This document shows positions 8,915-63,805 of a DNA stretch of 64,000 nucleotides, piece by piece. Below the pieces are notes generated by a model. The model was not told where the DNA came from. It worked only from the letters and a program-made list of their open reading frames with translations, and searched no databases. A program made the translations under genes and the position numbers. The stretch covers positions 30,500-94,499 of IMG/VR virus record IMGVR_UViG_3300025137_005870. One strand, written 5' to 3'. The stretch's first letter is position 1; each line of letters opens with the position of its first letter. The DNA is from a virus (Duplodnaviria; Caudoviricetes).

Positions 8915-9227
8915 TGGAGACGGTGGGAATTGAACCCACGTCCGAAATAATTTCCAATTCAAGTCATCCACAGGCTTGGGAGATTTTTCAAAATCAACAA
9001 AACTTTTCTGATCTTACTGTGACCAGAGACAGGTTCTTGTTTGATTTTTACAACTGATCTGTTGTTTTGATTAGATTGGATAGAAGGCTCTAATCAGCCT
9101 CCCGATTAAGCAGCTTGTGCTAAAACGAAATTGTTGTTATTGGCAACTAATTGTTTTTGATTTTTTAAGTCATCACGACTGCCTGCACTATCCTCTTTTA
9201 TCACTCCGTCGAATCCTGAACGTCCCC
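8915..9227 (-). ncRNA. ssrA: tmRNA; tag peptide ANNNNFVLAQAA* at 9106-9144
   Basis: 5' GGGGACG pairs with 3' CGTCTCC-A and contains G3:U70; GATTCGAC; T-arm GTGGGTTCAATTCCCAC; internal tag ending AA-stop. Confidence 0.95.
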
Positions 9228-29418: not shown

Positions 29419-29486
29419 CCTTACATATACATTATACTACAATTTTGAGAGAAAGTAAAGGATTTTGATGTCAAGAGGATGTCAAG
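29419..29486 (-). repeat. 68-bp promoter repeat, copy 1
   Basis: CTTGACA-N4-CTTGACA-N8-CTTTACT-N17-TATAAT-GTATATGTAAGG. Confidence 0.85.
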
Positions 29487-29495
29487 AGAGAAAAC

Positions 29496-29702
29496 CTAGA
29501 TTCCAACTTGCATATCAGGGCCTTCCATAAGTTCTTTTAGGTTGGCTAGTTCCTGCTCTCGCTGGGCGAGGCGCAAACGTAGGCGTTTGATTAATCCTGT
29601 TTTAAGCTCCTCTTCTAAGAAGATCTCACGCAAACCTCTTATGATAGCTTTAACCTCTTCTTTCGTAAGACTTACTGGAAACCTAGCATTAACCTCGGTC
29701 AT
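29496..29702 (-). CDS. Hypothetical protein
   Basis: MTEVNARF start with GGAG SD. Confidence 0.55.
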   Translation of the reverse strand: MTEVNARFPVSLTKEEVKAIIRGLREIFLEEELKTGLIKRLRLRLAQREQELANLKELMEGPDMQVGI

Positions 29703-30069
29703 GGCGATCTCCATCTGGATTATCGTATGGGTCCACATGAACCTCGGACGGGAACTGTAGCGCGTTGTCACGATTGGGAGGCTCGTCGAAAGTATCGGGT
29801 TGAAGGTCAATATCCGTCTCTGGATAATAATCATCAATACCCATCTCGTCTAGCTCCGTCCAAGCGGTGATAGTCTTATAATATGCCGCTCCAAGGCGGA
29901 TAATCTCGTCACTGAAGATATTGATGTATCTAGCAGGGTCAGAACCGATGTCCATTAACACAGGTACAAGCCCGTTTTCTGTGGCCATCTCACTGATAAG
30001 TGTGCTCTGAAACAAGATAGACAAGTCTTCAGCGGCGTTTTCAAGTTGTGATTTAATTTCGTTTGTCAT
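29689..30069 (-). CDS. Acidic hypothetical protein
   Basis: GAGGT SD; packed ORF. Confidence 0.65.
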   Translation of the reverse strand: MTNEIKSQLENAAEDLSILFQSTLISEMATENGLVPVLMDIGSDPARYINIFSDEIIRLGAAYYKTITAWTELDEMGIDDYYPETDIDLQPDTFDEPPNRDNALQFPSEVHVDPYDNPDGDRHDRG

Positions 30070-30194
30070 TTAATACCTCAGCTTACTGAAAAGATAGCTA
30101 GAAAGTGTGCAATAATAAGGGTGCTGATAAACAGCGAATCCCAATGTTGATCAATAGTGTTCCACATAGTGTAGTTTCTCCTTGGTTAATAAAG

Positions 30195-30270
30195 TGGTGG
30201 GTTGTGTGGGATTCGAACCCACGACCATCGGATTAAAAGTCCGGTGCTCTACCAACTGAGCTAACAACCC
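30195..30270 (-). tRNA. tRNA-Lys(UUU)
   Basis: GGGTTGTTAGCTCAG...CT TTT AA...GTTCGAATC...ACCA. Confidence 0.95.
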
Positions 30271-30282
30271 GAAAGTGTAGGT

Positions 30283-31356
30283 TTACCCTACGATCTCGAC
30301 GATGAAGTCAAGAACCTTCTGGCCATTCGATGCGGTTGCACCGTGCAGCGCGATAACATTGGAGTTATCTGCACTTGCGCCAATCGTTGCGAACAACTTC
30401 ATAGCAACTTCAGAAGGCAAAGTAACGAACCAGTCTGCGAGGTTCTGGATTTGCTCGATTGGAAGCGGACTACGGAGCACTTCACTTGCTTCCATCTTCT
30501 CAACGAGAGCAAGGTGGTCGTTGATACCGAAATCCTTGGTTGAAGCTACCTTACCGTGGACCAGAATGTCCTCGACGGTTACGATGCGCTCGTAGTTCTC
30601 AACAAAGTCACGGAACGAAACAGCAGCTTCGAAGCCGATAAAGGCGGCAGCGAGATTGTAGAGAGGAGCAAGGTTTTGCTTAGGCTCTACGAGAAGGTTA
30701 GCGTTGCCAACGGTATCGTTGAAACGAACCCAAGACCGGCGAGAAGGATAAACCTTGTTCGGCTCGTAACCACCAGCATCTGGCTTGTGCTCTAGGTGAG
30801 CGTGGTTCTGGTTAACAAAGTCCCAAACCATAGGGTCAACCTTGCCATTCGCCCAAGTCAACCAGTCGCTGACGGTAGGCTCTACATCAAACACGGTCCA
30901 ACGGTCAAGCTCGGCAGGGTCCATCTCACCAACTTGGTAGGAAGAAGCTCCACTATGCTCGCCACCGTTGACAGCAGCGAAGATGCGAGTCTGTGGGTGC
31001 AGATGCCAACCGTTCAACTTGCGAGAATCGGTAAGTTCAAAGATACCTTGACGAACCTCCATAGTCGCACGGTCAACCTCATCAAGGAAGAGCACCACAC
31101 CGTTGTCACAAGCCTCTTTGAGCCAATCGGGAGCGTTCCAGCGGGTAGACTCCCCATCGATGGAAGGAAGGCCCATAAGGTCGCCCTCGGTCATTTGAGA
31201 CGCGCGGCGTTCGACGACGGGAAGGTTGCGCTCGGCTGCAAACTGATAGACAACCTCGGATTTGCCGATGCCGTGACGCCCGCGAATAAGCACGGGGAAA
31301 CCTGCATCAATGACGTGAGCAACAACAGAGTTAAAAGTAGTGAAATCGATAGCCAT
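30283..31356 (-). CDS. MoxR-like AAA+ ATPase
   Basis: GRHGIGKS, GDLMGLP, LFLDEVDR, AAVN, MDPAELDRW, PSRRSW. Confidence 0.9.
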   Translation of the reverse strand: MAIDFTTFNSVVAHVIDAGFPVLIRGRHGIGKSEVVYQFAAERNLPVVERRASQMTEGDLMGLPSIDGESTRWNAPDWLKEACDNGVVLFLDEVDRATMEVRQGIFELTDSRKLNGWHLHPQTRIFAAVNGGEHSGASSYQVGEMDPAELDRWTVFDVEPTVSDWLTWANGKVDPMVWDFVNQNHAHLEHKPDAGGYEPNKVYPSRRSWVRFNDTVGNANLLVEPKQNLAPLYNLAAAFIGFEAAVSFRDFVENYERIVTVEDILVHGKVASTKDFGINDHLALVEKMEASEVLRSPLPIEQIQNLADWFVTLPSEVAMKLFATIGASADNSNVIALHGATASNGQKVLDFIVEIVG

Positions 31357-31406
31357 TGTGTGAATCTCCAGATTCAAGAGTTGAGTTCGGTGGGGACCAT
31401 CCCCGA

Positions 31407-31474
31407 CCTTACATATATATTATACTAAAATTTGAGGCAAAAGTAAAGGGTTTTTGTGTCAAGAGGATGTCAAG
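31407..31474 (-). repeat. 68-bp promoter repeat, copy 2
   Basis: Same layout as copy 1. Confidence 0.85.
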
Positions 31475-31497
31475 ACGAGAAAGGGAGGTTAAAGCTC

Positions 31498-32214
31498 CTA
31501 GATCGTCGTCTCAATAGTTGAAACATCTAGCTCGTCTCGAAGATCTCCGTGCCAGTCGCGGGGAATCTTGTGTCCACCCCACTCCTTATCGCGGAAAGTG
31601 TCCTTCAAACCTAGCTTACCGTCGTGATACTCGGGTGGCAGGATAGCGAAGATAGACGATTCGTCAGCTTTAACCTCAACTTTGTAGTTTTGGCCATAAT
31701 CTTTGCCGCGAATATCCATTGATAGAGCGAAATCGCTGCTCCAACGGTCCTTATTGGCGTTACCCAGCCGTTCCAGAGGTAGAACGTGGAATACGCGGGC
31801 ATCCTTTTTGTGCATACTGACCTTGGACCAATCCACGGACATCACGAGGTAAAGGGTCTTTGAACCTCCCCAATTCTCGGCAGAGAGCAAAGCGCCGGGT
31901 CCAAGCCCATTTTCAAGGACTGCCTTGAGGTAGTTAGAGCGATACTCTTTGTTGCGGATGCGGTAACGCTCCATCTGTGCCTTCATTTTGGAGCATCCAG
32001 CCCGAGAATGGCCAGCCTCTCCACAGTAGGAGCAAGAGCGGTTCTTGGCGGCTGTGGCTTTACGCTGCTTCTTCCTGTCGTATGCTTCGACGGTGCCGGT
32101 CATAATGCCTAGCTCGCGATACTCTTCGATTTTAGCCTTATACTCTGGACAACTAGACTTGTTGTGACCTGTGCCGTAGCAGTATGAACATCGGACTGTG
32201 CGCTTATAACTCAT
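31498..32214 (-). CDS. Protein with two CCHC zinc knuckles
   Basis: CSYCYGTGHNKSSC and CSYCGEAGHSRAGC. Confidence 0.8.
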   Translation of the reverse strand: MSYKRTVRCSYCYGTGHNKSSCPEYKAKIEEYRELGIMTGTVEAYDRKKQRKATAAKNRSCSYCGEAGHSRAGCSKMKAQMERYRIRNKEYRSNYLKAVLENGLGPGALLSAENWGGSKTLYLVMSVDWSKVSMHKKDARVFHVLPLERLGNANKDRWSSDFALSMDIRGKDYGQNYKVEVKADESSIFAILPPEYHDGKLGLKDTFRDKEWGGHKIPRDWHGDLRDELDVSTIETTI

Positions 32215-32231
32215 GTATGTATTCCTCTCCT

Positions 32232-32299
32232 GATTACATATACATTATACTAAATTTTGGGGCTGAAGTCAATCGATTAAATGTCAAAGAGATGTCAAG
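32232..32299 (-). repeat. 68-bp promoter repeat, copy 3
   Basis: TTGACA x2, then TTGACT-N17-TATAAT. Confidence 0.85.
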
Positions 32300-32406
32300 A
32301 GCCATATTACAGCTAGAGCCAGCATATTCGAGAACAGAGCAAACGACCAATAAAACGTCATCAGGCCGTTCCTCTTCTTTCGGTGGTGCGTTAGCCTACT
32401 ATTCAT

Positions 32407-33225
32407 CTATCGCTTCCCCTTCTTAATCCATCGTTCTTCGACGTGAAGCGGCGATGTCTCCCCGAAGAAAAGCACAGAATAAACCTTACTTCCACGAGCA
32501 GGGCTGGTAACCGGCTTTGCTCCTACCTTTAGGACGGTTGCCAGTTTGCCCGTTCGGGTCTTGTTCTCTCCAAGAGCGGACCAAGTAACATAAAGAAGGT
32601 TAGATGGAGCGGTGGCCCGCAAAGATACCATAGAACCTACACTATAGCGAGGCTCTGCCAAGGTTGCGGCGATAACCTTGCCTGCAAACTTGTTTTCCAC
32701 CATCTTCTTATAAGCCCGCTCGGAAGGGATGAATGTGTTGTCCTCCAAAGCCTTGGTTGCAAGGTCTTTAAAGTAAGGAGGGTTAGCAAGGTAATACCGT
32801 GCTGCAATCTCCATCATCTCCCGCATCTCGGAAGTAAAGCTCGAAGCCCAACTTTCGCGCTGCTCCTGTGCTTTGTCGCTGTGTCGGTCTGCGACCTTCA
32901 CCAAAATCTCCTTTTGACGGGGAGAAAGCTCCTTACCGATAGCCATTTGATGTTTGATGCTGGTTACAAAGTTCACACCCCAAGGGTCTTGTGCAGCCTC
33001 TGCGCGAGAAATCAAGCTATCAAGGCGACTTTGCTTGTCTGCGTCGATTGCGGGAGCAGAAGCAAGTTGTTCTTGCATAATGTCCAAAGCCTGCCTTTGA
33101 CCTGCACTTAGGGTCTTTTTGTTGGTGAATTGCTCTTGAAGCGACTCGATGAAAGAGCGGCTTGAACCTTGCAAACGAGTGTCTGCGAGGATAGAGTCAA
33201 AGATTGGTTGGATACGTCTGGCCAT
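32407..33225 (-). CDS. Hypothetical protein with duplicated helical motif and C-terminal SH3-like domain
   Basis: FIESLQEQ...LSAGQ and FVTSIKHQ...LSPRQ; YSVGSMV...YSVLF. Confidence 0.75.
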   Translation of the reverse strand: MARRIQPIFDSILADTRLQGSSRSFIESLQEQFTNKKTLSAGQRQALDIMQEQLASAPAIDADKQSRLDSLISRAEAAQDPWGVNFVTSIKHQMAIGKELSPRQKEILVKVADRHSDKAQEQRESWASSFTSEMREMMEIAARYYLANPPYFKDLATKALEDNTFIPSERAYKKMVENKFAGKVIAATLAEPRYSVGSMVSLRATAPSNLLYVTWSALGENKTRTGKLATVLKVGAKPVTSPARGSKVYSVLFFGETSPLHVEERWIKKGKR

Positions 33226-33238
33226 GTTGTTCTCTCCT

Positions 33239-33306
33239 GATTACATATACATTATACTAAATTTTGAGGCTAAAGTCAAGCCTTTGTTTGTCAAGTAGAT
33301 GTCAAG
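33239..33306 (-). repeat. 68-bp promoter repeat, copy 4
   Basis: TTGACA x2, then TTGACT-N17-TATAAT. Confidence 0.85.
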
Positions 33307-33311
33307 ACTGA

Positions 33312-33557
33312 TTAACTAGGTTGTTCCACAAGAACTAGATCTCTCACGTCATACATCTGTTTCTTCCCTATCTTTGAGCCAGTGAGCCAAATCACTGATG
33401 CTTTCTTGATTATTCGTCCTTGTCCATAATCCATACTTCCAACCTGTGCTATCGCTGCCAGTGCTGACCTGTCGCCTTTGTAGCAAACTGTGTCTCCTCT
33501 CTCTATTTCCCGCTTATAACCGGGGTTATCTTCGTTCGACGGGTATGTATACCTCAT
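33312..33557 (-). CDS. SH3/KOW-like array member 10
   Basis: IERGDTV...VIW...DLVLV. Confidence 0.65.
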   Translation of the reverse strand: MRYTYPSNEDNPGYKREIERGDTVCYKGDRSALAAIAQVGSMDYGQGRIIKKASVIWLTGSKIGKKQMYDVRDLVLVEQPS

Positions 33558-33741
33558 TTATCATCTCCACATCTTCTTTGTATCTAAACCAAGGTTTGCC
33601 CATTGTTTTGAGCCACTGTATCCTCACAAATTCTTGATTCCATTGGTCTGCGCCCTCTTCCACTATGACGCCTACCCCCAGACCTTTTGCGTCACCCTCG
33701 GCAGCTTCGGGCTTTAACCTTACTAAATCACCGACTTTCAT
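33526..33741 (-). CDS. SH3/KOW-like array member 9
   Basis: MKVGDLV...GVIV...IQW...EMINE. Confidence 0.75.
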   Translation of the reverse strand: MKVGDLVRLKPEAAEGDAKGLGVGVIVEEGADQWNQEFVRIQWLKTMGKPWFRYKEDVEMINEVYIPVERR

Positions 33742-33920
33742 TTTCCACTCACTGAAATAAGATTGCTTGTATACACGAGGTCGTAGCCTTCTGCCGATTG
33801 TGTTGGTTCCAAATACCTAATGCGGACCTCGCCTTTATATGAGGGAACATAGGTAACAATCGCTAGCTTACCCTTGCTTTTACAGTGTGGTGCTATTCTT
33901 ACTAAATCACCGACTTTCAT
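33738..33920 (-). CDS. SH3/KOW-like array member 8
   Basis: MKVGDLV. Confidence 0.75.
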   Translation of the reverse strand: MKVGDLVRIAPHCKSKGKLAIVTYVPSYKGEVRIRYLEPTQSAEGYDLVYTSNLISVSGK

Positions 33921-34116
33921 TTAGGGCCTCCAGATAACAATCCCATTCCTTTGTGTGCTTGCCATCGGCCCATAGAACTTCGTAAATGCGTTTCTTAGGG
34001 TGAGGCTGCGCCTCTCTGTCACTTAACCCTACCACGATGCCGGACGCCGCATAGCGGCTCTCAGAGGTCTTAAACGCGGTTGGAGAACTAAACTTTACTA
34101 AATCACCGACTTTCAC
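33907..34116 (-). CDS. SH3/KOW-like array member 7
   Basis: GTG-KVGDLV...LEALNESR*. Confidence 0.75.
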   Translation of the reverse strand: MKVGDLVKFSSPTAFKTSESRYAASGIVVGLSDREAQPHPKKRIYEVLWADGKHTKEWDCYLEALNESR

Positions 34117-34273
34117 TGATTACCTCAAAGTGGCTTTTGCCTGCGTTCATCTTGTAGCCTGTTTTTAGGCTCTGAACATAGATTGATGAGTCATCCTTGT
34201 GGGTGATAAGCACCATCCAAAGGTTGTTTTCACTGTCTTGGTTTTGTAGTCTCACCAAATCACCTTTCTTCAT
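34103..34273 (-). CDS. SH3/KOW-like array member 6 (56 aa, not in track)
   Basis: MKKGDLVRLQ...YVQSLKTG...HFEVISESR*. Confidence 0.75.
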   Translation of the reverse strand: MKKGDLVRLQNQDSENNLWMVLITHKDDSSIYVQSLKTGYKMNAGKSHFEVISESR

Positions 34274-34451
34274 TGATTACCTCTAAGTTTCCCGCCATTA
34301 CAATGTCTTCTTGTCTCAGTGGCCCAAACCATCGGACTTTCCAGTAGTTTGGACCGATAGGGCTGGCAAAGTGTGGTGATGGACCAAGAACAAAACCTTT
34401 TCTAACTCGCTTGAATCGTTCCTTCAAAGCTACAATATCACCGGCTTTCAT
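34260..34451 (-). CDS. SH3/KOW-like array member 5
   Basis: MKAGDIV...WKVRW...LEVINEER*. Confidence 0.75.
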   Translation of the reverse strand: MKAGDIVALKERFKRVRKGFVLGPSPHFASPIGPNYWKVRWFGPLRQEDIVMAGNLEVINEER

Positions 34452-34599
34452 TGATTACCTCCAACAAGTCTATGCTGCAAGCATCTGGTTCCCCAGTATC
34501 TACCCAGACAATCCGAGCACTGTGCTCGCCATCAAATCCAGTTATAATAGCCTTCCACGCGGATGTGCCCTTTCTTTGCACCAAATCACCGACTCCCAC
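34438..34599 (-). CDS. SH3/KOW-like array member 4 (53 aa, not in track)
   Basis: GTG-GVGDLVQRKG...IVWVDTG...LEVINESR*. Confidence 0.75.
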   Translation of the reverse strand: MGVGDLVQRKGTSAWKAIITGFDGEHSARIVWVDTGEPDACSIDLLEVINESR

Positions 34600-34771
34600 T
34601 GATAACCTCCAAATAACGGGCTGAATGGTTCATTCTAACACCATCCATCCAAGTAACTTCTACTTCTTTGTTATCTCCGATTTCTTCGGGATCAACGCAG
34701 GTTACCAGCCCCACGTCTGCCACGCCTGTATCTGGCCATGATGCCGCTTTTACTAAATCACCGACTTCCAC
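34586..34771 (-). CDS. SH3/KOW-like array member 3
   Basis: GTG-EVGDLV...VTWMDG...LEVISGSR*. Confidence 0.75.
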   Translation of the reverse strand: MEVGDLVKAASWPDTGVADVGLVTCVDPEEIGDNKEVEVTWMDGVRMNHSARYLEVISGSR

Positions 34772-34946
34772 TGATAACCTCAAATCTGTTCTTTGAAAGT
34801 CGGCGTCTCTTGCCGCTTTTCAGGCTCTGAACCATAACGCGGGTCATACCTGTGTCGCTATGGACAACAATGAATAAATCGCCTTGATGCTTTCGCATCA
34901 TCCTCGTAGTTGCCTGCTTCAACCTCAACAAATCACCGGCCTTCAT
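34758..34946 (-). CDS. SH3/KOW-like array member 2
   Basis: MKAGDLL...VQSLKSG...FEVISGSR*. Confidence 0.75.
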   Translation of the reverse strand: MKAGDLLRLKQATTRMMRKHQGDLFIVVHSDTGMTRVMVQSLKSGKRRRLSKNRFEVISGSR

Positions 34947-35166
34947 TTACAACCTCCAACTCATCTACTGGAAGCCAACCAAGCCAGTCGCCGGATTGAG
35001 ATGTGAGCATAACCCAGTTAACACCTCGGTTTCCAGCGAACGATGCAGCCTGTGGTGCTCGCCCAACCGTGAAACCTTCATCGCCGCGTTCGCGGATACG
35101 GTTCTTTGTTCGCTGACTTGCGCCTTGTGCTGCTTTAAGTTTAACAACTTCACCAACCTTAAACAT
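34933..35166 (-). CDS. SH3/KOW-like array member 1
   Basis: MFKVGEVV...LEVVNEGR*. Confidence 0.75.
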   Translation of the reverse strand: MFKVGEVVKLKAAQGASQRTKNRIRERGDEGFTVGRAPQAASFAGNRGVNWVMLTSQSGDWLGWLPVDELEVVNEGR

Positions 35167-35341
35167 TGCTTTCCCCTTCTTCTGTGATAGTTACCTTTGG
35201 ACCGTGGTTTTCTGCCACGACCTGTGCGAACGTCTTTTCTCCAGATAGAACCGAGTGAATCGCGTCCTCGATTTCTTTCTGTGTCATATTCGTGATGTCA
35301 AGCTCATTGTGCATCTCGATGTCCAAGTTCTTCATCTTCAT
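35159..35341 (-). CDS. Small hypothetical protein heading the array operon
   Basis: GAGGGAG SD before MKMKNL. Confidence 0.6.
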   Translation of the reverse strand: MKMKNLDIEMHNELDITNMTQKEIEDAIHSVLSGEKTFAQVVAENHGPKVTITEEGESNV

Positions 35342-35356
35342 CTGTCTCTCCCTCAA

Positions 35357-35424
35357 CCTTACATACATATTATACTAAATTTTGAGCCAGAAGTCAAGGC
35401 TTTTAATGTCAAGCAAATGTCAAG
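35357..35424 (-). repeat. 68-bp promoter repeat, copy 5
   Basis: CTTGACATTTGCTTGACATTAAAAGCCTTGACTTCTGGCTCAAAATTTAGTATAATATGTATGTAAGG. Confidence 0.9.
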
Positions 35425-35432
35425 ACTGATAA

Positions 35433-35861
35433 TCAAGGTCTGGGGCGGTCAATGGCTCGGCTGGTCATCTTACTAAGGTAGTTCTCGAAGTCACTATCCA
35501 TGCTCATGTCCCAATCGTCAGCTTCAAAGTCGTCTTCTTCGTAATCATCGTCATAAGCCTCTGTCGCGCTCTGTGAGGGCTCGGGTGGTTGTGGGGTTGC
35601 CATCACACTTACAGGCTCCTCGGGCTCCGCGTAAGGCTCAAAAAGAGCGCGTGAGGCAGCCCAATCAACAAGGTGATCCCCATCGGCTATCTCTTGGGGG
35701 CTAAATTGTTCTTGTGCTATCTTTTCAATTAGTTCGGGACTCGCTAGGACTGCGATAACCTTCCCGTGTTTAGTAACGCCAACGGCGTGTAGATCTTTGA
35801 TGATAGAGGTAAATTCACCCCGAAGTTTGCTAGCGGTAATCGTTTTCATTATTTTCTCCAT
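35433..35861 (-). CDS. Phd/YefM antitoxin-like domain with acidic tail
   Basis: KTITASKLRGEFTSII...VTKHGKVIAVLAS. Confidence 0.65.
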   Translation of the reverse strand: MEKIMKTITASKLRGEFTSIIKDLHAVGVTKHGKVIAVLASPELIEKIAQEQFSPQEIADGDHLVDWAASRALFEPYAEPEEPVSVMATPQPPEPSQSATEAYDDDYEEDDFEADDWDMSMDSDFENYLSKMTSRAIDRPRP

Positions 35862-35876
35862 TGTGTAGTTTTAAGG

Positions 35877-35962
35877 TGGTAGCTGAGGCGGGACTCGAAC
35901 CCGCAATCTCTATGAGCGCAAGATTTTAAGTCTTGTGTGTATACCAATTCCACCACTCAGCC
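35877..35962 (-). tRNA. tRNA-Leu(UAA)
   Basis: CAAGA CT TAA AA TCTTG; long variable arm; encoded CCA. Confidence 0.93.
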
Positions 35963-35967
35963 ATAGT

Positions 35968-36303
35968 TTAGTTTCCAAAAGCAATTTTGGTGTGTTTACA
36001 TTTGCCCCGATACTTATGCGCGGGACAGCTACAAGATAGTTTACCTGTCTCTGTGTGTTTGCGAACTGTGTAGGTATTCCCTTTAGAACCCTCAACCTTG
36101 ACCTCTTCATAGGATGGTGTTGGTCTTTTGTAGAGCAACCACTTAGGAAGGTCTTCTCTTGTAGCTTCAAGGGGGACTTCCACCCAAGTGTTGCCTGCGA
36201 TAGCCCAGCGTTTACCACTGGGCATCGTGCTAAGAACAGGATTTTGTTTTACTTCAAGAGGGAAGTTAATCCACGGGTATCGTTCGATAGGGTCTAGCGT
36301 CAA
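35968..36303 (-). CDS. SWIM zinc-finger protein
   Basis: GSKGNTYTV...CSCPAHKYRGKCKH. Confidence 0.8.
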   Translation of the reverse strand: MTLDPIERYPWINFPLEVKQNPVLSTMPSGKRWAIAGNTWVEVPLEATREDLPKWLLYKRPTPSYEEVKVEGSKGNTYTVRKHTETGKLSCSCPAHKYRGKCKHTKIAFGN

Positions 36304-36312
36304 TTCAATCTC

Positions 36313-36534
36313 CTAACTGCAACAAGCAGGGTGTGTCCAGTTCTCATACTGCCAATCGCTGATTTTATCGTCTTTGCAGAGATAATCCGTCCAGTTGTTC
36401 CAAGCCTCGGAACGCGCACACTCATCGATACGGCCATCCTTCTCGTGATGCTCTTGAATAATAGGTAGAACCTCATTTTCAAACTCCTCACAAGCCTCTT
36501 TCCAAGTCATTACGCTATCCAAATTCTTCGCCAT
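36313..36534 (-). CDS. Hypothetical protein
   Basis: GAGGAGG SD before MAKNL. Confidence 0.7.
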   Translation of the reverse strand: MAKNLDSVMTWKEACEEFENEVLPIIQEHHEKDGRIDECARSEAWNNWTDYLCKDDKISDWQYENWTHPACCS

Positions 36535-36549
36535 GTATGTCCTCCTCGA

Positions 36550-36617
36550 CCTTACATACATATTATACTAAATTTTGAGCCAGAAGTCAACACCTTTAGT
36601 GTCAAGGAAATGTCAAG
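36550..36617 (-). repeat. 68-bp promoter repeat, copy 6
   Basis: Same consensus. Confidence 0.9.
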
Positions 36618-36981
36618 ACCCCATATCGTAGTTTATACCTGTCCAACTGAACGTAGAATTTGCTGTCTCTTCCCAAATGTAGCCCCTAACTGCGCTTTTC
36701 GTCTCTGTCTGGGGGCGCTTACCGGCGTTCATCAGGATAGCGCCGTCTTTACGGCGAACAAAACCAAAGATGCTCGGTCGCGGGGCTGTGCCAAGCCAAG
36801 CGTTTTTATCTTTTGGGGTCGCTGTAGCGATGATTTTCCAGTATTTAGGCCCCTTTTTGGTCGTAACTGTCCAGTTATCACCATAAGTGCGCGCGTTTTC
36901 GTGTTCTTCAAGGCATTGCTGGATAGAGCCGATGAAACGCTCTAAATACCATTCTAGTTCTTCTTGTGTGCGCTCTTCCAT
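36613..36981 (-). CDS. Conserved phage hypothetical protein
   Basis: GPKYWKI...FGFV...DGAIL...VRG. Confidence 0.7.
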   Translation of the reverse strand: MEERTQEELEWYLERFIGSIQQCLEEHENARTYGDNWTVTTKKGPKYWKIIATATPKDKNAWLGTAPRPSIFGFVRRKDGAILMNAGKRPQTETKSAVRGYIWEETANSTFSWTGINYDMGS

Positions 36982-36983
36982 TA

Positions 36984-37418
36984 TCACATTCCGTATGCGA
37001 TTGTTGGCTTAAAACCAATGATTTCTTCGATGTTATCAGCCACAAGCTCAATCTGATATGGACCACTATCAAAATGTTCCTCTGGCGAGTCAAGATACAG
37101 GTCCAACCACTCATTTAGGTTCTTGACTTTTGAAGATCCCGGTCCTGCTGCCTGACCCAAAGCCCAAGCGATAAGTGTATCTGCGCCTAGAACCTCAACA
37201 ATCTCTTCATTAGAATAACTGTCAATGTAATCTTCCCAATGATCACGGGCGTGTTGTCCAGCATCTTCCTCGCTTTTGAAGACGTAGATCTCTGTCCAGT
37301 TTCCTGATTCATCTTTTAGAGAGATGACGGCGTGGTCATCAAAACTCGTAACATCACTTTCACCGATGGTGAAAAACTTCTTCTTCATAATTTCTGAATC
37401 TAATTTAATAAATGACAT
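36984..37418 (-). CDS. Acidic hypothetical protein
   Basis: GAGG SD before MSFIKL. Confidence 0.7.
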   Translation of the reverse strand: MSFIKLDSEIMKKKFFTIGESDVTSFDDHAVISLKDESGNWTEIYVFKSEEDAGQHARDHWEDYIDSYSNEEIVEVLGADTLIAWALGQAAGPGSSKVKNLNEWLDLYLDSPEEHFDSGPYQIELVADNIEEIIGFKPTIAYGM

Positions 37419-37598
37419 TTTGTCCTCTGGAGATAAAGTAGGTATGGGTTCCGGTTTCCGCATGTCTTTGGCGCGGGACCACCACCCTAGCCAACCTTCA
37501 ACTGGTTTGTCCCCCGTAAGGGGGAACAGCGTTCGTTGTTGGCGTTGAACGCTAGTAATAATCCTTAGTTCTTTTTATAAGAACCCATACCCACTAAA

Positions 37599-37772
37599 TC
37601 AAACTTTTGTTTCTACTGTTTTCAGTTCTGCTTCTTGAGAAATCAGGGTTGAACCACGGTTATTACCCTTGATCCACATCACGCGCCAGCAGTTAGAAAC
37701 GGCTGGACGGTTGACGATGACGCCGACAGAACCTTTAGAATTGCGATTTTGAACATAACTACCAATGTGCAT
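37599..37772 (-). CDS. Small SH3/KOW-like protein
   Basis: MHIGSYV...GVIV...WRVMW...ELKTV; GAGG SD. Confidence 0.65.
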   Translation of the reverse strand: MHIGSYVQNRNSKGSVGVIVNRPAVSNCWRVMWIKGNNRGSTLISQEAELKTVETKV

Positions 37773-37803
37773 AGATGCCTCTTTGTTTGTGGGACGATGC
37801 CCG

Positions 37804-37871
37804 ATTTGTATATACATTATACTAGATTTTGAGTCTGAAGTCAAGACTTTAAATGTCAAGGGAATGTCAAG
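37804..37871 (-). repeat. 68-bp promoter repeat, copy 7
   Basis: Same consensus. Confidence 0.9.
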
Positions 37872-38874
37872 AGGCTTTTTTGCGCTTTGAAAGACGACTA
37901 TCGATGTGCTTACGAAGGTCGCCTTTCTGGATTCTCTTGTAAGACCCCTTTGAAACCGCAATAAAAGTATTTGGGTTATCCTTTTGGTGCTCCATAATCT
38001 CATGAACCAAACCAGCAGTCATTCGATATTGGTTCTTAAACTTACTCTTACAATCTTCTTGAATCTTTTTACCAAATCGTTCGGGTAACTTACTACCCAC
38101 AGCCTCAATAAAAAATTCTTCAAACTCAGAGCCACAGGCACCATTAGGGCGCAACGCGGGGTATGCCGAGAACAGAATACAGAGGCTCCTAAGCATTTCG
38201 CCAGAAATTGGCTTATCTTCTTTTCTAGGGTTCTTACACTTCATAACAAGTTCCTTAGCCTCACGAACCATATCTACTTCCTCGGATGCGTCCACAGCCG
38301 CCTTGAGACTGTTAAATTTCACCGGCACGCCACAGTCATCACCAACAAAACCACCGTCTTCATGGCTACAATACACATACATTCCAGAATTGTTTAGGAT
38401 GTTTGCATAATCTTGAACCTTTTCGTCGCCAGCATAAACACTGTGAACAAAAGTTTGCTCGGATGTAATGGCAGTCTTACAAGTTTTATTTGTTTGAACA
38501 AATAATCTGTGAATATCTGCCTTTGTATCTACATCAATAACTTGCATGGGCATTGTTTCAACATCCGGGTATGTCATTTTGAAAAGGTGCCTAGAGTGGT
38601 CGCCATCGAAAACAAACACCTTGCCAGTGTCAGCGCATCGGCCTGCGCGAGGCGGTTGCCACATATCACCGTCAAAGCCTCCACGAACCTTTAGGTTTTT
38701 TCGCAGATTCTTTATCTCTGTATCACGATTGATCAGAGAAGGTGTGTTAACTGACAAATCCTCTATTCTTGCGGCATATTCACTGGCTGTCTTTGGAGCA
38801 TGGTTTATAACTTTTGTGCTGATATCTCCATAGCTGTCTTGCGCGATACCTTTGTTTGTAATCAAATTACTCAT
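37867..38874 (-). CDS. ParB/DGQHR-like domain protein
   Basis: PP...VFVFDGDHSRHL...LFVQTN. Confidence 0.55.
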   Translation of the reverse strand: MSNLITNKGIAQDSYGDISTKVINHAPKTASEYAARIEDLSVNTPSLINRDTEIKNLRKNLKVRGGFDGDMWQPPRAGRCADTGKVFVFDGDHSRHLFKMTYPDVETMPMQVIDVDTKADIHRLFVQTNKTCKTAITSEQTFVHSVYAGDEKVQDYANILNNSGMYVYCSHEDGGFVGDDCGVPVKFNSLKAAVDASEEVDMVREAKELVMKCKNPRKEDKPISGEMLRSLCILFSAYPALRPNGACGSEFEEFFIEAVGSKLPERFGKKIQEDCKSKFKNQYRMTAGLVHEIMEHQKDNPNTFIAVSKGSYKRIQKGDLRKHIDSRLSKRKKAS

Positions 38875-38919
38875 TTCAATCTCTCTTCTCTGGGTTGTGT
38901 GGTTGAGGCTCTTCCTCAA

Positions 38920-38987
38920 CCTTACATACATATTATACTAAATTTTGAGTCTGAAGTCAAGACTTTTAATGTCAAGGAAATGTCAAG
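38920..38987 (-). repeat. 68-bp promoter repeat, copy 8
   Basis: Same consensus. Confidence 0.9.
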
Positions 38988-39498
38988 AGCGGTTATCAAA
39001 GTATGAAGCAACCATATCAGACGCTTGCTTGAACAAAATAATATTACCCTCGGTCATAACGTCCAGTAGTGCAGCCTTCTCTTTCATAAAAACCTTCGCA
39101 AAGTTAGGATCATCCTTGATAATGCTCTTGCCATTGCTGATGAGGTCTGCCAGTTTGACAGTCTTGGCATCGGGTGATGCTTCGGCTGTGTGTTGGCGAT
39201 CAAGCTCCTTTCTCAACGCTCGGTTACCATCTTCTGGCTTGCTTACGTCGGTCAAGTCGCTGACCAGTGCGGCCACACGAGGGCCGAACTCATCTTTGAT
39301 TTCCTTGATAGATACTGGAGTATCCTCTACCACGTCGTGCAACAACGCAGCAGCCTGCATCTCGGGATCATCGATAACCTGCTTTACAAGCTCCATAACC
39401 TCGATTGGGTGGACGATGTAAGGTTCACCAGTATACTTACGGACCTGACCTTTGTGGGCCTCCGTCGCGAACTCCAATGCTTTCTTTACTACCGTCAT
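38983..39498 (-). CDS. HD-domain hydrolase, RelA/SpoT-HD (Mesh1/SAH)-like
   Basis: AHKGQVRKYTGEPYIVHP, AALLHDVVED, VKLADLISN. Confidence 0.88.
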   Translation of the reverse strand: MTVVKKALEFATEAHKGQVRKYTGEPYIVHPIEVMELVKQVIDDPEMQAAALLHDVVEDTPVSIKEIKDEFGPRVAALVSDLTDVSKPEDGNRALRKELDRQHTAEASPDAKTVKLADLISNGKSIIKDDPNFAKVFMKEKAALLDVMTEGNIILFKQASDMVASYFDNRS

Positions 39499-39519
39499 AT
39501 AATCCCCCAGTTTAAAAAA

Positions 39520-39596
39520 TGGTACGCCCTGTAGGATTCGAACCTACGACCCTCGGCTTAGAAGGCCGATGCTCTATCCAACTGAGCTAAGGGCGC
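39520..39596 (-). tRNA. tRNA-Arg(UCU)
   Basis: TCGGC CT TCT AA GCCGA; encoded CCA. Confidence 0.95.
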
Positions 39597-39799
39597 TCAT
39601 TGTTAGCTTAGAAGCCGTTAAGACGGAATACGAAGTTGATCACCCATTGGATCGCCCACGCACCGACACCTAAACAAAGGATCCAGTAAGCCACGCCAAG
39701 GCAGGCTCCAAGCGGGTTTTGGAGTGCTGAAGTGATTCCGGTTTTAACACTATCTACTATTTGCATTTTTACCTCGCTGGTTTAAGGGACTGCCGCCCC

Positions 39800-39866
39800 A
39801 TTTGTTTATACATTATACACCCAAACGCGGGCGAAGTCAACAAGTAAGATGTCACGAAATGTCACG
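39800..39866 (-). repeat. Degenerate promoter repeat, copy 9
   Basis: GTGACA-N5-GTGACA...TTGACT-N17-TATAAT. Confidence 0.65.
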
Positions 39867-39890
39867 GAGAACATTATCCTAGTTAAAAAG

Positions 39891-39964
39891 TGGGCTCTCT
39901 CGGACTCGAACCGAGGACCATCCGGGTATGAGCCGGGTGCTCTGACCAACTGAGCTAAGAGCCC
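39891..39964 (-). tRNA. tRNA with CAU anticodon (elongator Met or Ile2)
   Basis: GGGCTCT/AGAGCCC-A stem; CT CAT AC loop. Confidence 0.88.
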
Positions 39965-39977
39965 TTGAGAACTGAAG

Positions 39978-40050
39978 TAGGGCTGGGTGGATTTGAACCA
40001 CCGGCCAATCGCATATAAGGCGACTGCTCTAACCTCTGAGCTACAGCCCC
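39978..40050 (-). tRNA. tRNA-Ile(UAU)
   Basis: GGGGCTG/CAGCCCT-A; GTCGC CT TAT AT GCGAT. Confidence 0.85.
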
Positions 40051-40058
40051 ATAAAATG

Positions 40059-40132
40059 CGCCCCTTGCTGGATTCGAACCAACGACACGCGGATTAACAG
40101 TCCGCTGCTCTAACCAACTGAGCTAAAGGGGC
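40059..40132 (-). tRNA. tRNA-Asn(GUU)
   Basis: GCGGA CT GTT AA TCCGC; discriminator G. Confidence 0.93.
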
Positions 40133-40139
40133 TTAAAAA

Positions 40140-41141
40140 CTATCTTCCAATCATTAATATTTCACGGGCTTTGGTAGCCTCGTATTCACCGCCTTCATTC
40201 TTCTTTTTCCTGCCGACAGTGTATGTAACATCAAAATATACGAGCTTGTTTGTACCTTTTCTGGTGGTAAAGAAGTTATCGCCCAAGTCCCGATTTGATA
40301 AAAGGCAGTATGAACCTTTACTCTTGCTGTCTTCAAAGAATTTGATAACCGTTTCTTGGAAATCATCATCTTTCTTGGTGTTGTAGTCTGCGAACCCTCC
40401 TCGATAAGGCGGGTCCAAATAGACAAACGAATCATTACAGGCATGTTCTAAGGTTTCTTTAAAGTCTCCATCCAAAATGGTCGCGTTCTGTAGTGCGACG
40501 TTCCAAGATAACACGTTGTCCTTATCATAAATCGATTCTTTGTGCCTCATGAGGCCACATGGTGTGTTGAATAGGTCAGTGCCTGCCTTGGCTTGCCAAA
40601 CGCCGTTAAAGGCCGTTTTCATAAGGAAATAGAGGTATGCTGCTCTCTTGGTTGCGCTCCAGTTATGGAGATTCTCTTGGTACAAAGCACGAGTCTTAAA
40701 GAAGAAAGTTCTTCGCGAGGGACGGATTTGATATATCTTGTCCCAATCGTAAGTATTCCCTTTTAACTTGTATTTCTTTTCTAAATCTTTATCAGGCGCG
40801 CCGCCTTCAAGACCTAACCATTCTGTTTTCTTCTTGCCGTCAGTTACAGTAACTTGCTTGTAAGTCGGCGGGAGAAGTGCAATATACTGAGATTCTAGGT
40901 CGTCAAGAATGTCACAAAAATCTTGTAAGTCACCCTTGATAGCTCGATAAATCTCCATAATGTATGGATTTATATCATTAATCACAAATTTAGCACTTGG
41001 ATTTTTGGCGTATGCCCATGTAAATACGGCTCCACCACCAAAAAAGGGCTCGATGTATGTATCAAAACTCTCCGGTAGATGTTTAGCAAAAGTATCGAGC
41101 AACTTGGTTTTACCACCAGCCCACATAAACAATGGCTTCAT
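40140..41141 (-). CDS. D12-class N6-adenine DNA methyltransferase (Dam-like)
   Basis: WAGGK, YIEPFFGGGAV, INDIN, YLDPPY. Confidence 0.92.
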   Translation of the reverse strand: MKPLFMWAGGKTKLLDTFAKHLPESFDTYIEPFFGGGAVFTWAYAKNPSAKFVINDINPYIMEIYRAIKGDLQDFCDILDDLESQYIALLPPTYKQVTVTDGKKKTEWLGLEGGAPDKDLEKKYKLKGNTYDWDKIYQIRPSRRTFFFKTRALYQENLHNWSATKRAAYLYFLMKTAFNGVWQAKAGTDLFNTPCGLMRHKESIYDKDNVLSWNVALQNATILDGDFKETLEHACNDSFVYLDPPYRGGFADYNTKKDDDFQETVIKFFEDSKSKGSYCLLSNRDLGDNFFTTRKGTNKLVYFDVTYTVGRKKKNEGGEYEATKAREILMIGR

Positions 41142-41626
41142 TAAATAATCTCCATGATCTGTTCAGCTACATCTTTGATGTTTGTAAAGTCTGGCTCTAT
41201 GATTGCATATGGAACACCATACAAATCAACTTTCAATTTATTCTGATAGTCTTCCCTCTGAAAAGTATCTCCCGAAAAGGCTAGGAAGATTGGATACTTT
41301 GGTGTGTTCGGGTGCATCTCTCTGACCGTCTTTACGACGCCCTCCGTGATCATCTTGTAAACCCTCTCATGGGCGTTACCACCGTTGTTCCCTGTTTTCT
41401 TTTCAATAAATACGAACCGGCTTGTTTCGTTGTTAGTAACTTTAGCATCAAGTATTATGCCTTTGCCATTGGGATAAATTTTCACCTTTGGAGGCTTTAG
41501 TTGGACGGTGTAATGGTCAGGTAGGCTTTTCGCCAGATGTCTGACGAACTCGTTTTCACCAGTGTCTCCTGTGACCCTTGCTCCCATCTGCCAGTTTCCG
41601 CGATTAGATAAATGATTTGCGCTCAT
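41141..41626 (-). CDS. Putative type II restriction endonuclease (MunI/EcoRI-like motif)
   Basis: ILD...FIEKKT...GNAHER; translationally coupled to the MTase. Confidence 0.6.
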   Translation of the reverse strand: MSANHLSNRGNWQMGARVTGDTGENEFVRHLAKSLPDHYTVQLKPPKVKIYPNGKGIILDAKVTNNETSRFVFIEKKTGNNGGNAHERVYKMITEGVVKTVREMHPNTPKYPIFLAFSGDTFQREDYQNKLKVDLYGVPYAIIEPDFTNIKDVAEQIMEII

Positions 41627-41627
41627 A

Positions 41628-41837
41628 CTACCTTCCTACCCATCGGGCATCGCCGACGGTCATAACGGGCTGGTAGGCCCCTTTATTAAATGATGGTGCT
41701 GAGCAACGGGAACGATGGTCGGCCACTCGATGGGCACGACGATCTCCACATTCCAAACACAGATGATAACCTAATTCTAGGCGACGAGCAGGATACTCTT
41801 CACCACACAATTTACATTCAGCCAATGCAACCCCCAC
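41628..41837 (-). CDS. DksA/TraR-like C4 zinc-finger protein
   Basis: CKLCGEEYPARRLELGYHLCLEC; upstream sigma70-like promoter. Confidence 0.6.
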   Translation of the reverse strand: MGVALAECKLCGEEYPARRLELGYHLCLECGDRRAHRVADHRSRCSAPSFNKGAYQPVMTVGDARWVGR

Positions 41838-41896
41838 GCTACATATACATTATAGCACGTCCCCGTGCCGAAGTCAAGCAGAAAATATAAAAAACT

Positions 41897-42082
41897 TTAA
41901 GCGTCTGCTGGTTCTGAACCGAGCCACCAGAGAACAACGTGTTCAAAGCCTAGTTCTAAGTCTTTTTTAAGCATCGCATCGTCGATCACTTTCTTGATTT
42001 CTACTGCCTGCTTCATCTCTTCTTTCGTAATATCCAAGTCGCCAAGTTCCAAAACCATATCTTTCAAGCTCCGTTTGCTCAT
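41897..42082 (-). CDS. Hypothetical protein
   Basis: AGGA SD; upstream TTGACA...TATAAT. Confidence 0.55.
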   Translation of the reverse strand: MSKRSLKDMVLELGDLDITKEEMKQAVEIKKVIDDAMLKKDLELGFEHVVLWWLGSEPADA

Positions 42083-42175
42083 GTGAGTATCTTATTAAGG
42101 TGTGTAGCTCTCCCACACATATATATTATAACCGCTTGGGGGGTCTGTGTCAAGGGTCTTGACACATTTTTTACA

Positions 42176-52589: not shown

Positions 52590-52926
52590 TTGTATCCTCC
52601 TGTGGTTGTAGCATACTCGTCATGTCTTGCAACCTTTCGCTCATATCATTCAGTTTTTCCAAGTCCATATCTTGCCGTATTGGTGGATTTATAGTAGAAA
52701 CATACCCACCAAGTATAGCCTGACAATCTGCTAACCTCTGATCTATTTGATACATAGACTGCCGCGTTGCGTCTATAATGCTAGCTGCTACCTCTACTTG
52801 GCCCTTATCCAGAAAAGTAGAGGTTGTGTTTAGTTCGTAGGTCCAATCCATAGAAGTAGGTAACAATCTCTTCGCTTCATTAAGCACGTTATTCAACTCT
52901 GTAACATACTGTACTTTAACTTCCAT
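52573..52926 (-). CDS. Hypothetical protein
   Basis: Packed ORF downstream of groEL. Confidence 0.65.
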   Translation of the reverse strand: MEVKVQYVTELNNVLNEAKRLLPTSMDWTYELNTTSTFLDKGQVEVAASIIDATRQSMYQIDQRLADCQAILGGYVSTINPPIRQDMDLEKLNDMSERLQDMTSMLQPQEDTNGTTN

Positions 52927-58643: not shown

Positions 58644-58985
58644 TTAAAGATCTGGGTTTTGCTTTTCAAGAATATCAAAAATGTTCTCTATCTCTTCATC
58701 ACCGAGAGCCAACTTGTTCGATTGCTCTTTTCCAGTATTAATTAGTTCTCTTTCTTCTTTTATACTCTTTTTGGTTCGGTTACCTATGTTTTTTGATGCT
58801 TTTAACTTATCAACATAAGATAATACGTCTCCATCCTGCATTAAATAGCCAGTTACAATGCCTCGAAAGAACTGGGCTTGGGATACCCCGTCGTGCTGCA
58901 AGCGAATCTTTAACTCTGCAAATCGTTTATCCGAGTCGTAGAATACAACCTTCTTGTTCATCGTACCGTACTTGGGCTCACTCAT
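58644..58985 (-). CDS. Hypothetical protein
   Basis: Coupled to the upstream IMPDH-like gene (TAATG). Confidence 0.65.
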   Translation of the reverse strand: MSEPKYGTMNKKVVFYDSDKRFAELKIRLQHDGVSQAQFFRGIVTGYLMQDGDVLSYVDKLKASKNIGNRTKKSIKEERELINTGKEQSNKLALGDEEIENIFDILEKQNPDL

Positions 58986-63762: not shown

Positions 63763-63805
63763 TCTTTCCCCCTTTTGTATATTTATTATAACACACTTCG
63801 GCGCA

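Follow-up and report, generated by a model that had tools for sequence, protein, structure and literature searches.

We describe here an array of ten small genes in a 64,000-nucleotide (nt) stretch of viral DNA, below called the window, which comprises bases 30500-94499 of a 94.5-kb IMG/VR virus record (IMGVR_UViG_3300025137_005870; Duplodnaviria, Caudoviricetes) that is estimated to be 52% complete. The minus strand carries all long open reading frames (ORFs) of the window, and the gene content, which includes GroEL, PhoH, a Dam methylase, GMP reductase, adenylosuccinate synthetase, UvdE, six tRNAs and a transfer-messenger RNA (tmRNA), indicates that the source is a large uncultured phage. 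At positions 33312-35166 of the window, the ORF list contains ten consecutive minus-strand ORFs of 53-81 amino acids (aa), as had been stated in an earlier note made from the letters of this DNA, and successive genes in this row are joined by a recurring junction in which the end of one gene and the start of the next are read from the same letters. The genes and promoters are given below in the direction of transcription; bit scores refer to a profile of the family built from 103 homologs from outside the window (the external profile), and L107 and L108 denote two metagenomic loci that are close to this one.

35369-35397, minus strand: sigma70-like promoter of the array operon (TTGACT, 17 nt, TATAAT; 11 of the 12 hexamer letters match), within the repeat copy 35359-35439
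35159-35368 (as an ORF of 69 aa), minus strand: first gene of the operon, not of the family; no Pfam match; 0.1 bits
34933-35166, minus strand: member 10, 77 aa, divergent; 16.9 bits
34758-34946, minus strand: member 9, 62 aa; 53.1 bits
34586-34783 (as an ORF of 65 aa), minus strand: member 8, with a likely GTG start at 34771 and then 61 aa; 70.2 bits; missing in population variants
34438-34599, minus strand: member 7, 53 aa, GTG start, a minimal barrel (modelled); 54.8 bits
34260-34451, minus strand: member 6, 63 aa; 44.5 bits; ortholog in L107 86% identical
34103-34273, minus strand: member 5, 56 aa; 59.1 bits
33907-34116, minus strand: member 4, 69 aa, GTG start; 55.7 bits; replaced in population variants
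33738-33920, minus strand: member 3, 60 aa, ending in SGK-stop; 40.7 bits; missing in L107 and L108
33526-33741, minus strand: member 2, 71 aa; 56.5 bits; many orthologs about 70% identical
33312-33557, minus strand: member 1, 81 aa, a barrel preceded by 20 extra residues at the N-terminus; 14.0 bits
33251-33279, minus strand: next copy of the same promoter, at the downstream edge of the operon, within the repeat copy 33241-33321

The first gene of the operon probably starts at the ATG at 35341, which is preferred because the ATG at 35368 abuts the -10 box of the promoter, and it overlaps the start of member 10 by 8 nt. The two promoters lie in copies of an 81-nt repeat (33241-33321 and 35359-35439) that are 83% identical and each hold a near-consensus sigma70 promoter; according to the promoter prediction, 35397-35369 and 33279-33251 are the only strong promoters on the coding strand in 33000-35700, and no coding-strand terminator was found between the two copies. 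With the promoter repeat at both edges and no terminator between them, the leader gene and the ten family genes appear to form one operon, and the prediction agrees with the earlier description of the array as standing behind one strong promoter, none being predicted inside the array on the coding strand. The downstream copy is predicted to drive the next gene, which encodes a protein of 272 aa.

The junctions, numbered by the members that they join, are as follows.

34924-34959, minus strand: junction repeat 10/9
34749-34784, minus strand: junction repeat 9/8, one crossover partner of a 172-nt skip in population variants
34577-34612, minus strand: junction repeat 8/7, the other crossover partner of the 172-nt skip
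34429-34464, minus strand: junction repeat 7/6
34251-34286, minus strand: junction repeat 6/5, where homology to L107 ends
34094-34129, minus strand: junction repeat 5/4, the nearest to the consensus; many unrelated community contigs align to this copy only
33898-33933, minus strand: junction repeat 4/3
33719-33754, minus strand: half junction 3/2, conserved in its start half only

These are eight copies of a 36-nt direct repeat that show 67-100% identity to the reference copy and recur at a spacing of 148-196 nt, which matches the eight junctions, 150-200 bp apart, that had been recognized by eye, including the copy near 33721 for which only the start half had been claimed; in this copy, seen at 33719, the 23 letters 33719-33741 are identical to 33898-33920. 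A 27-nt junction pattern, searched with up to three mismatches, has four matches in the window against 0.00 expected from 100 shuffles, so the repeat is not due to chance. In one frame, the junction encodes L-E-V-I-(N/S)-E-S-R-stop, the end of the upstream gene, and in the other it supplies the Shine-Dalgarno (SD) sequence GGAGGT, the start codon (ATG or GTG) and the residues M-K-V-G-D-L-V of the downstream gene, so that the dual reading proposed in the earlier note is borne out in both frames. The overlap, likewise as proposed, is exactly 14 nt by the ORF coordinates at seven junctions (10/9, 9/8, 8/7, 7/6, 6/5, 5/4 and 4/3); it is 4 nt (ATGA) at junction 3/2 and 32 nt at junction 2/1.

Because both frames use each base of the overlap, high conservation is expected there; the SD, for its part, falls within the L-E-V codons. 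We examined the codons of the junction in the 114 family genes that have no overlapping upstream ORF and compared them with those of gene bodies. In these genes, GTC makes up 39 of 66 V3 codons versus 18% in gene bodies (p = 1e-13), GGT makes up 47 of 91 G4 codons versus 30% (p = 2e-5) and AAA makes up 66 of 84 K2 codons versus 54%; just beyond the overlap, D5 is GAT in 78% versus 58% and L6 is TTR in 77% versus 35%. The persistence of the biased codons where there is no upstream overlap indicates that the half-site is carried without a present coding need, and agrees with the suggestion that conservation of the junction goes beyond dual coding. Such a half-site fits cassettes that have moved, and it would fit equally a half-site that is kept for its own sake.

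All ten members match the external profile: eight score 40-70 bits, member 10 scores 16.9 bits and member 1 scores 14.0 bits, whereas the neighbours used as controls, the leader gene and the 272-aa protein, reach 0.1 and 1.8 bits, respectively. By this profile comparison, all ten can be assigned to one unnamed family, defined here and termed the 'MKVGDLV' mini-gene family, which within the 94.5-kb record is confined to the array. The earlier account is corrected in that members 1 and 10 are divergent members of the family and the first gene of the operon is not a member. Member 1 has 18 database orthologs at 76-90% identity. Scans of the ten members against Pfam and PHROG yielded no significant family: six of the ten had no Pfam match at E <= 1, and the best match of the other four was PH_PLEKHM2 (E 0.03; 14.7 bits, cut-off 22). 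In the protein atlas, the matches were unnamed viral clusters only.

The pattern G-x-I/V ... V-x-W that the earlier note had read as beta structure is real: in the alignment of 112 family sequences, the corresponding columns are conserved at 64-71% (G17 71%, V19 64%, V30 69%, W32 69%). The model of member 7, based on this alignment, is a five-strand barrel predicted with high confidence (a pLDDT, or predicted local distance difference test score, of 91.9), apart from the N-E-S-R tail, which is of low confidence. The conserved positions make up the barrel core and the two ends of the protein (G4, D5, L6, V7, G17, V19, V30, W32, G36 and L-E-V-I), and insertions in the family are almost confined to two loops, which follow residues 13 and 25 of member 7. 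The best VIA match of this model is a KOW domain (Z 8.5; root-mean-square deviation (rmsd) 1.7 over 50 residues), and further matches in VIA and Foldseek are KOW, Tudor, SH3, PWWP and R67 DHFR barrels and ribosomal eL14; its structural neighbours in a viral library are uncharacterised small proteins. The VIA matches to small barrels range over Z 6.3-8.5 and rmsd 1.3-3.2 over 44-53 residues, where a Z below 8 may mean a common arrangement only and a common fold says nothing on function. Member 1, the most divergent one (pLDDT 80.8), is predicted to have the same strand order as member 7 behind its 20-residue N-terminal extension, with eIF5A/EF-P barrels as its best structural matches, although weak ones (E 0.025), and also CarD and chromo barrels. 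Thus, the members are predicted to be SH3/KOW-like five-strand beta-barrels, two of the ten having been modelled, and these two fall in one fold class, in line with the single fold that had been proposed. They share with the known SH3-like small barrels (KOW of Spt5/NusG, Tudor, PWWP, R67 DHFR, eL14) the five strands and the short 3-10 turn before the last strand, and differ from them in being stand-alone proteins of 53-81 aa outside any Pfam family; the best Pfam match of this fold class is that of member 5 to DUF3104 (E 0.053; 13.6 bits, cut-off 27). The N-E-S-R tail is missing where the overlap is 4 nt (member 3, and the gene 4' of L108), which, together with its low confidence in the model, suggests that it is a by-product of the overlap and no functional part of the barrel.

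When 1.84 billion representative sequences were searched with a profile, 333 proteins (clusters at 50% identity), mostly of 49-85 aa, were retrieved at E <= 1e-3, and a second search retrieved 201 proteins, all 'hypothetical' or unnamed and from marine sources; outside marine viral and metagenome DNA, no member was found. Exact matches to the degenerate junction pattern were located in 98 stretches of IMG/VR contigs, these contigs being in many cases 150-200 kb in length. A family-wide survey covered 116 sources, the window and 115 other loci, in which 397 family genes were called; these fall into 314 clusters at 70% identity. Exactly 14 nt of overlap is seen in 108 of the 191 adjacent pairs of family genes and 4 nt in nine, and in 100 of the 116 sources at least three junction motifs stand in a regularly spaced run, the longest consisting of 20 motifs in 3.2 kb. 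The junction consensus is the same across 70 lineages. The gene for the 272-aa protein that follows the array (32407-33225, minus strand; no known family) has homologs at 30-37% identity in 29 of the array-bearing loci, so the arrays occupy a conserved genome neighbourhood; the C-terminus of this protein is only faintly barrel-like, as the 1.8 bits mentioned above indicate. A search of the literature outside subscription journals found no description of the family or the junction.

The longest run of motifs belongs to locus L070, 4194 nt of a 63.8-kb viral contig, and reaches the edge of that piece. Several long proteins, P0001 (2380 aa), P0010 (538 aa), P0022, P0025 and P0098, match the family profile in 3-12 stretches each, and one long matching protein carries a CHAP domain; their tandem barrel repeats may be fused forms of the family or merely look-alikes at the level of the fold.

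Parts of the array are contained in 19 sequencing runs from 13 studies, none of them a run of RNA, and the contigs of four runs from four studies were set against it. Differences in depth, bins that lacked cover and the word shares of the runs outside these four were given no weight. The clearest variant is a joint from 34582 to 34755, a skip of 172 nt that equals one junction-to-junction period and removes member 8. At its ends, 12 identical letters fit both sides and lie inside the junction copies at 34577 and 34749, and the joint is found in X6, X9 and X10, from three studies, with sides of 185, 85 and 146 letters that contain few mismatches. The crossover falls in the V-G-D-L codons, so that the stop of member 9 and the frame of member 7 are both kept. 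A second joint, from 33920 to 34143 with 27 other letters between, is found in three runs (X7, X9 and X10); as read from the letters, it would remove member 4, and member 5 would then end differently and overlap member 3 by 4 nt. At junction 5/4, the contig depth peaks and there are loose ends at 34095 and 34126, of low agreement (0.54-0.63), accompanied by many short-sided joints in the community contigs; in the community, many different cassettes are thus joined to the consensus junction. Joints of this kind were discounted, because they come from other cassettes that share the junction only; they include those from 33921 to 34580 and from 34126 to 34431 or 34579 and those that go back (34126 to 34093, 34615 to 33898 and 34511 to 33880, with sides of 22-43 letters), and none of them was taken for a deletion, a duplication or a circle. 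A joint from 33279 to 32400 can be put down to the promoter repeat on the margin of the compared stretch.

A search of IMG/VR viral contigs with member 2 retrieved distant loci only. A metagenome scan yielded at least two close loci, L107 and L108, in which the ortholog of member 2 is 87% and 96% identical, respectively. In the direction of transcription, the order of cassettes is 10-9-8-7-6-5-4-3-2-1 in the window, 7-6-X-2-Y-1-Z in L107 and (7)-W-5'-X-V-4'-2 in L108. L107 is homologous to the window up to 34257, which lies 17 nt inside member 5, and again from 33741, where member 2 begins. In three variants, the left neighbour of member 7 is a different one each time; the first three codons of member 7 vary with this neighbour, and the remainder is constant. 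The cassettes shared by the window and L107 are 92, 86, 87 and 58% identical in amino acids, and such unequal identities of neighbouring cassettes point to mixed ancestry. Comparison of the window with L107 or L108 gave ratios of nonsynonymous to synonymous substitution rates (dN/dS) of 0.40, 0.23, 0.20 and 0.06 for members 7, 6, 2 and 2, low values that identify the cassettes as real genes under purifying selection. In the more distant L109, member 6 and a gene like member 2 lie upstream of a promoter copy, and members 10 and 5, a second copy resembling member 5, and members 4 and 1 lie downstream of it, a layout that reads as relocation and tandem duplication.

Family-wide, breakpoints were collected from an all-against-all blastn comparison of the loci, an event being defined as two collinear matches that flank an indel or replacement of 60-3000 nt; this gave 45 unique events with 180 breakpoints. 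Of these, 101 lie within 25 nt of a junction motif, compared with a mean of 28.1 (standard deviation (sd) 4.8, maximum 43) in 1000 draws of random positions within 500 nt of each breakpoint. Clean indels of a single cassette were found in four pairs of contigs that are 97-100% identical on both sides.

L010/L011: 176-nt indel, 20 letters common at the junction
L055/L057: 175-nt indel, 40 letters common at the junction
L053/L086: 196-nt indel, 25 letters common at the junction
L036/L093: 184-nt indel, 31 letters common at the junction

IMG/VR contigs that match pairwise at 99-100% identity over 5-11 kb were seen to differ in single cassettes, and seven cassette-sized blocks, 80-99% identical, are common to the loci L055 and L070, between which their order differs and one block is duplicated. 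Gene order and content are thus fixed in neither respect among the aligned relatives, and homology stops at junctions; taken together with the 172-nt skip, the content and order of L107, L108 and L109 and the 101 of 180 breakpoints, this supports the idea put forward in the earlier note that crossover at the junction adds, deletes and shuffles whole genes.

The interpretation that we favour and consider likely is that the dual-coding junction serves as a short portable homology for the exchange of whole genes by general homologous recombination. One sigma70-type promoter would drive the leader gene and then the ten paralogous barrel genes, in what is presumably an early operon. The junction, of about 33 nt, would combine the last barrel strand, L-E-V-I, the codons of which double as the SD, with the next start codon and the 14-nt overlap, where the letters for M-K-V-G-D of the downstream gene spell, in the other frame, (N/S)-E-S-R-stop of the upstream one. 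Since every cassette has the same junction in the same register, the junction would provide a portable homology, in the clean cases of 12-40 identical letters. Recombination between two junctions, either within a genome or between co-infecting relatives, would remove, insert, duplicate or re-order whole genes, with both reading frames and the translational coupling surviving the exchange, and the outcome would be a birth-and-death pool of very many different cassettes, each under purifying selection. The recombination would be homologous and would require no dedicated enzyme, and the proteins might conceivably be small binders of host or defence targets, in which the scaffold stays fixed while the loops vary. 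A bolder proposition, namely, that the junction is more than a by-product of paralogy, being a selected, enzyme-independent docking site of a large marine phage clade at which any cassette from a co-infecting genome would arrive in frame, with ribosome site and coupling in place, and that it gives access to an integrase-free pool of hundreds of small scaffold-and-loop binders for anti-defence or takeover, is possible but appears to us doubtful.

Several observations weigh against recombination at the junction as the explanation. The position of the breakpoints alone is no proof of a site of DNA cutting, because alignment ends are drawn to the junction, the sole part common to all cassettes, and because selection removes events that break genes; moreover, 79 of the 180 breakpoints have no junction motif within 25 nt, for example, those of a 223-nt indel between L031 and L052 and of a 331-nt insertion between L053 and L086. 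Cassettes common to two loci keep the same direct neighbour in 15 of 17 comparisons, mostly of near-identical contigs. In L107, positions 573-610 hold a 10-codon remnant ORF in which the start of a cassette is fused to the end of cassette 4'; this is an internal deletion and no junction crossover, and so decay by internal deletion also happens. The codon bias at the 5' end may in part be ordinary bias of the start region, with the exception of GTC. The test of junction identity within versus between lineages gave no sign of homogenisation of the junctions within a genome: identity is 67.2% within and 65.9% between lineages, a difference of about 2 permutation sd that some permutations exceed; at a mere 1.3 points, it led us to make no claim of concerted evolution. 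Finally, RecA, RecT and ERF were not found in the 94.5-kb record, which says little because the record is about half of the genome.

Some of these points are equally expected of ordinary tandem paralogs, in which the junction would be kept by selection on the peptide ends, the SD and the coupling, while unequal crossing-over and random deletions change the array without any diversifying role. The physical events are the same under this explanation and under the one that we favour, and the two differ only on whether the junction is kept because it recombines. The reading of the overlap in two frames with the SD inside the L-E-V codons, the purifying selection on orthologs, and the occurrence of some indels away from junctions and of a remnant that is an internal deletion are all compatible with ordinary paralogs, and a consensus that is common to 70 lineages, while junctions of one genome are hardly more alike than those of different ones, is better explained by selection than by gene conversion. 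This account, however, has difficulty with the GTC and GGT codons that are kept (39 of 66 versus 18% and 47 of 91 versus 30%) in genes without an overlapping upstream ORF, with clean indels that have 12-40 identical letters exactly at the junction, with one-cassette blocks that are 80-99% identical and differently ordered in otherwise unrelated arrays, and with the unequal divergence of neighbouring cassettes between the window and L107 (92, 86, 87 and 58%), and we regard it as rather unlikely.

Two further explanations are much less probable than that. All the comparison sequences are metagenome contigs, and the junction is common to many cassettes in the same samples, as the loose ends at 34095 and 34126 (agreement 0.54-0.63) attest, so that the mosaicism might be thought to arise from assemblers joining different phages at the repeat. 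Between the two junction copies involved in the 172-nt skip, however, exact identity extends over 14 letters at most, which is shorter than the 31-letter words of the Logan contig index and also below the usual word length of assemblers, and hence too short for assembler chimeras; furthermore, three studies yielded contigs with the same joint, flanked by 85-185 letters that contain few mismatches, and single cassettes distinguish the contigs of pairs that agree at 99-100% over 5-11 kb. An artefact of this kind is thus very improbable. We assign a similarly small chance to a site-specific, integron-like system in which a dedicated recombinase would excise and insert cassettes as circles at the junction, notwithstanding the repeat-cassette-repeat layout behind one promoter and a short inverted repeat (ATCA ... 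TGAT) around the start codon of the junction. No match to the tyrosine recombinase family PF00589 was detected in the 94.5-kb record (about 52% of the genome), whereas 14 of 14 control genomes matched, and there is no consistent fold of the single-stranded DNA like that of an attC hairpin: six junctions folded as DNA reached -1 to -7 kcal/mol, with z scores of -1.69, 0.42, -3.57, -0.39, 0.43 and 0.83, only one of the six being below -2. In addition, the crossover points vary inside the junction, with common tracts of 12-40 letters, which fits homology-driven exchange.

Of the likeness to CRISPR or an integron that the earlier note had drawn, therefore, the layout stands and nothing beyond it. 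As in an integron, one promoter precedes a row of promoterless cassettes with a recurring site, and content and order vary between relatives. The differences are that here, in half of a genome, no IntI-type integrase was found, that there is no attC-like fold and the site lies inside coding sequence, and that the cassettes belong to one protein family, in contrast to the unrelated genes of integrons, and are apparently exchanged by homology; the array is not an integron. Nor is it a CRISPR, because the 'spacers' are genes, namely, ORFs of one family under purifying selection, and the repeats are 67-100% identical and coding.

The closest described mechanism is the modular shuffling mediated by promoter-early stem-loop (PeSL) elements in the hyperplastic regions of T4-type phages (Arbiol et al. 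2010, PMC2839356; Comeau et al. 2014, PMC4122927). As described there, short conserved PeSL repeats flank small, non-essential early ORFans, and homologous recombination between two repeats deletes, inserts or replaces these between close relatives; the element is a non-coding promoter with a terminator stem-loop, the cassettes are transcribed as separate units, and their cargo genes are mutually unrelated (PMC2839356; PMC4122927). The same accounts report mini-circles demonstrated by inverse PCR and crossover points that map within the repeat (PMC2839356; PMC4122927). In the array, too, the ends of indels and replacements between close relatives fall inside repeats, and the operon also sits between two copies of a repeated sigma70 promoter element. 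In contrast to PeSL, the repeat here is coding in two frames, with SD, start and stop, and no promoter or terminator was found at the eight junctions, the promoter repeat being present at the two operon edges only; the cassettes are paralogs of one fold that are predicted to be co-transcribed and translationally coupled. Modular shuffling at conserved boundaries is, then, already known, and what differs is a dual-coding gene junction as the recombining repeat.

In the region 29430-42153 (minus strand), one sigma70-type promoter (TTGACT, 17 nt, TATAAT) recurs in about ten copies, which also have conserved letters in the spacer and split the accessory region into small operons; there are 13 matches to the pattern versus 0.5 expected. 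These recurring promoters could, by the same analogy, be module boundaries of the PeSL type.

Multigene families of poxviruses and of African swine fever virus form tandem arrays of paralogs. In T4, amplification of a counter-defence gene driven by recombination has been described (PMC9391042). In such gene 'accordions', as here, recombination at short repeats shifts the number and content of tandem accessory genes, which are thought to meet host defences; accordions, however, amplify one or a few genes and then collapse, whereas the arrays hold hundreds of old, diverged cassettes with one conserved junction. A parallel with the internal-protein genes of T-even phages, whose conserved leader sequences might serve as sites of shuffling, was not borne out by a literature search and is left aside.

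Accessory regions of phages are the main reservoir of unknown genes, and their turnover has been detailed for few systems. A recombining boundary that carries a stop, a ribosome-binding site and a start would ensure that each exchange gives an expressed, coupled gene, and a coding boundary would thus be a simple answer to the problem that random recombination mostly breaks genes. With its fixed barrel and its two hypervariable loops, the family resembles a natural library of small binders. Should the members turn out to act against host defences or in takeover, the arrays would offer a rich and easily mined supply of such factors, and the junction would be a ready-made handle for retrieving these proteins from metagenomes.

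Among the phage records searched, no cultured relative of the source phage was found: blastn of the array against 50,697 phage records and tblastn of member 4 against phage records gave zero matches each, and the phage GroEL is at most 45% identical to anything among them. Immediately upstream of the promoter, a gene at 35433-35861 (minus strand) encodes a protein of 142 aa with a very acidic tail and an N-terminus weakly resembling the Phd/YefM antitoxins (E 1.9e-4, below the cut-off); in two runs, 72 other letters replace 159 nt (35625 to 35785) within this gene. The six tRNA genes, all on the minus strand, lie at 30195-30270, 35877-35962 and 39520-40132 (Lys-ttt, Leu-taa, Arg-tct, Met-cat, Ile-tat and Asn-gtt), with tRNA-Leu directly upstream of the array operon, where it accounts for a depth of 130-430 at 35806-36067 in the compared runs. 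The auxiliary genes of the minus strand include those for PhoH (4914-6269), a GroEL-like chaperonin (52916-54469), a protein of the GMP reductase/IMPDH family (58985-59995), adenylosuccinate synthetase (61791-62822) and the UvdE endonuclease (62830-63813), and the phage also encodes a tmRNA (8915-9227, minus strand), for which ARAGORN gives the tag peptide ANNNNFVLAQAA.

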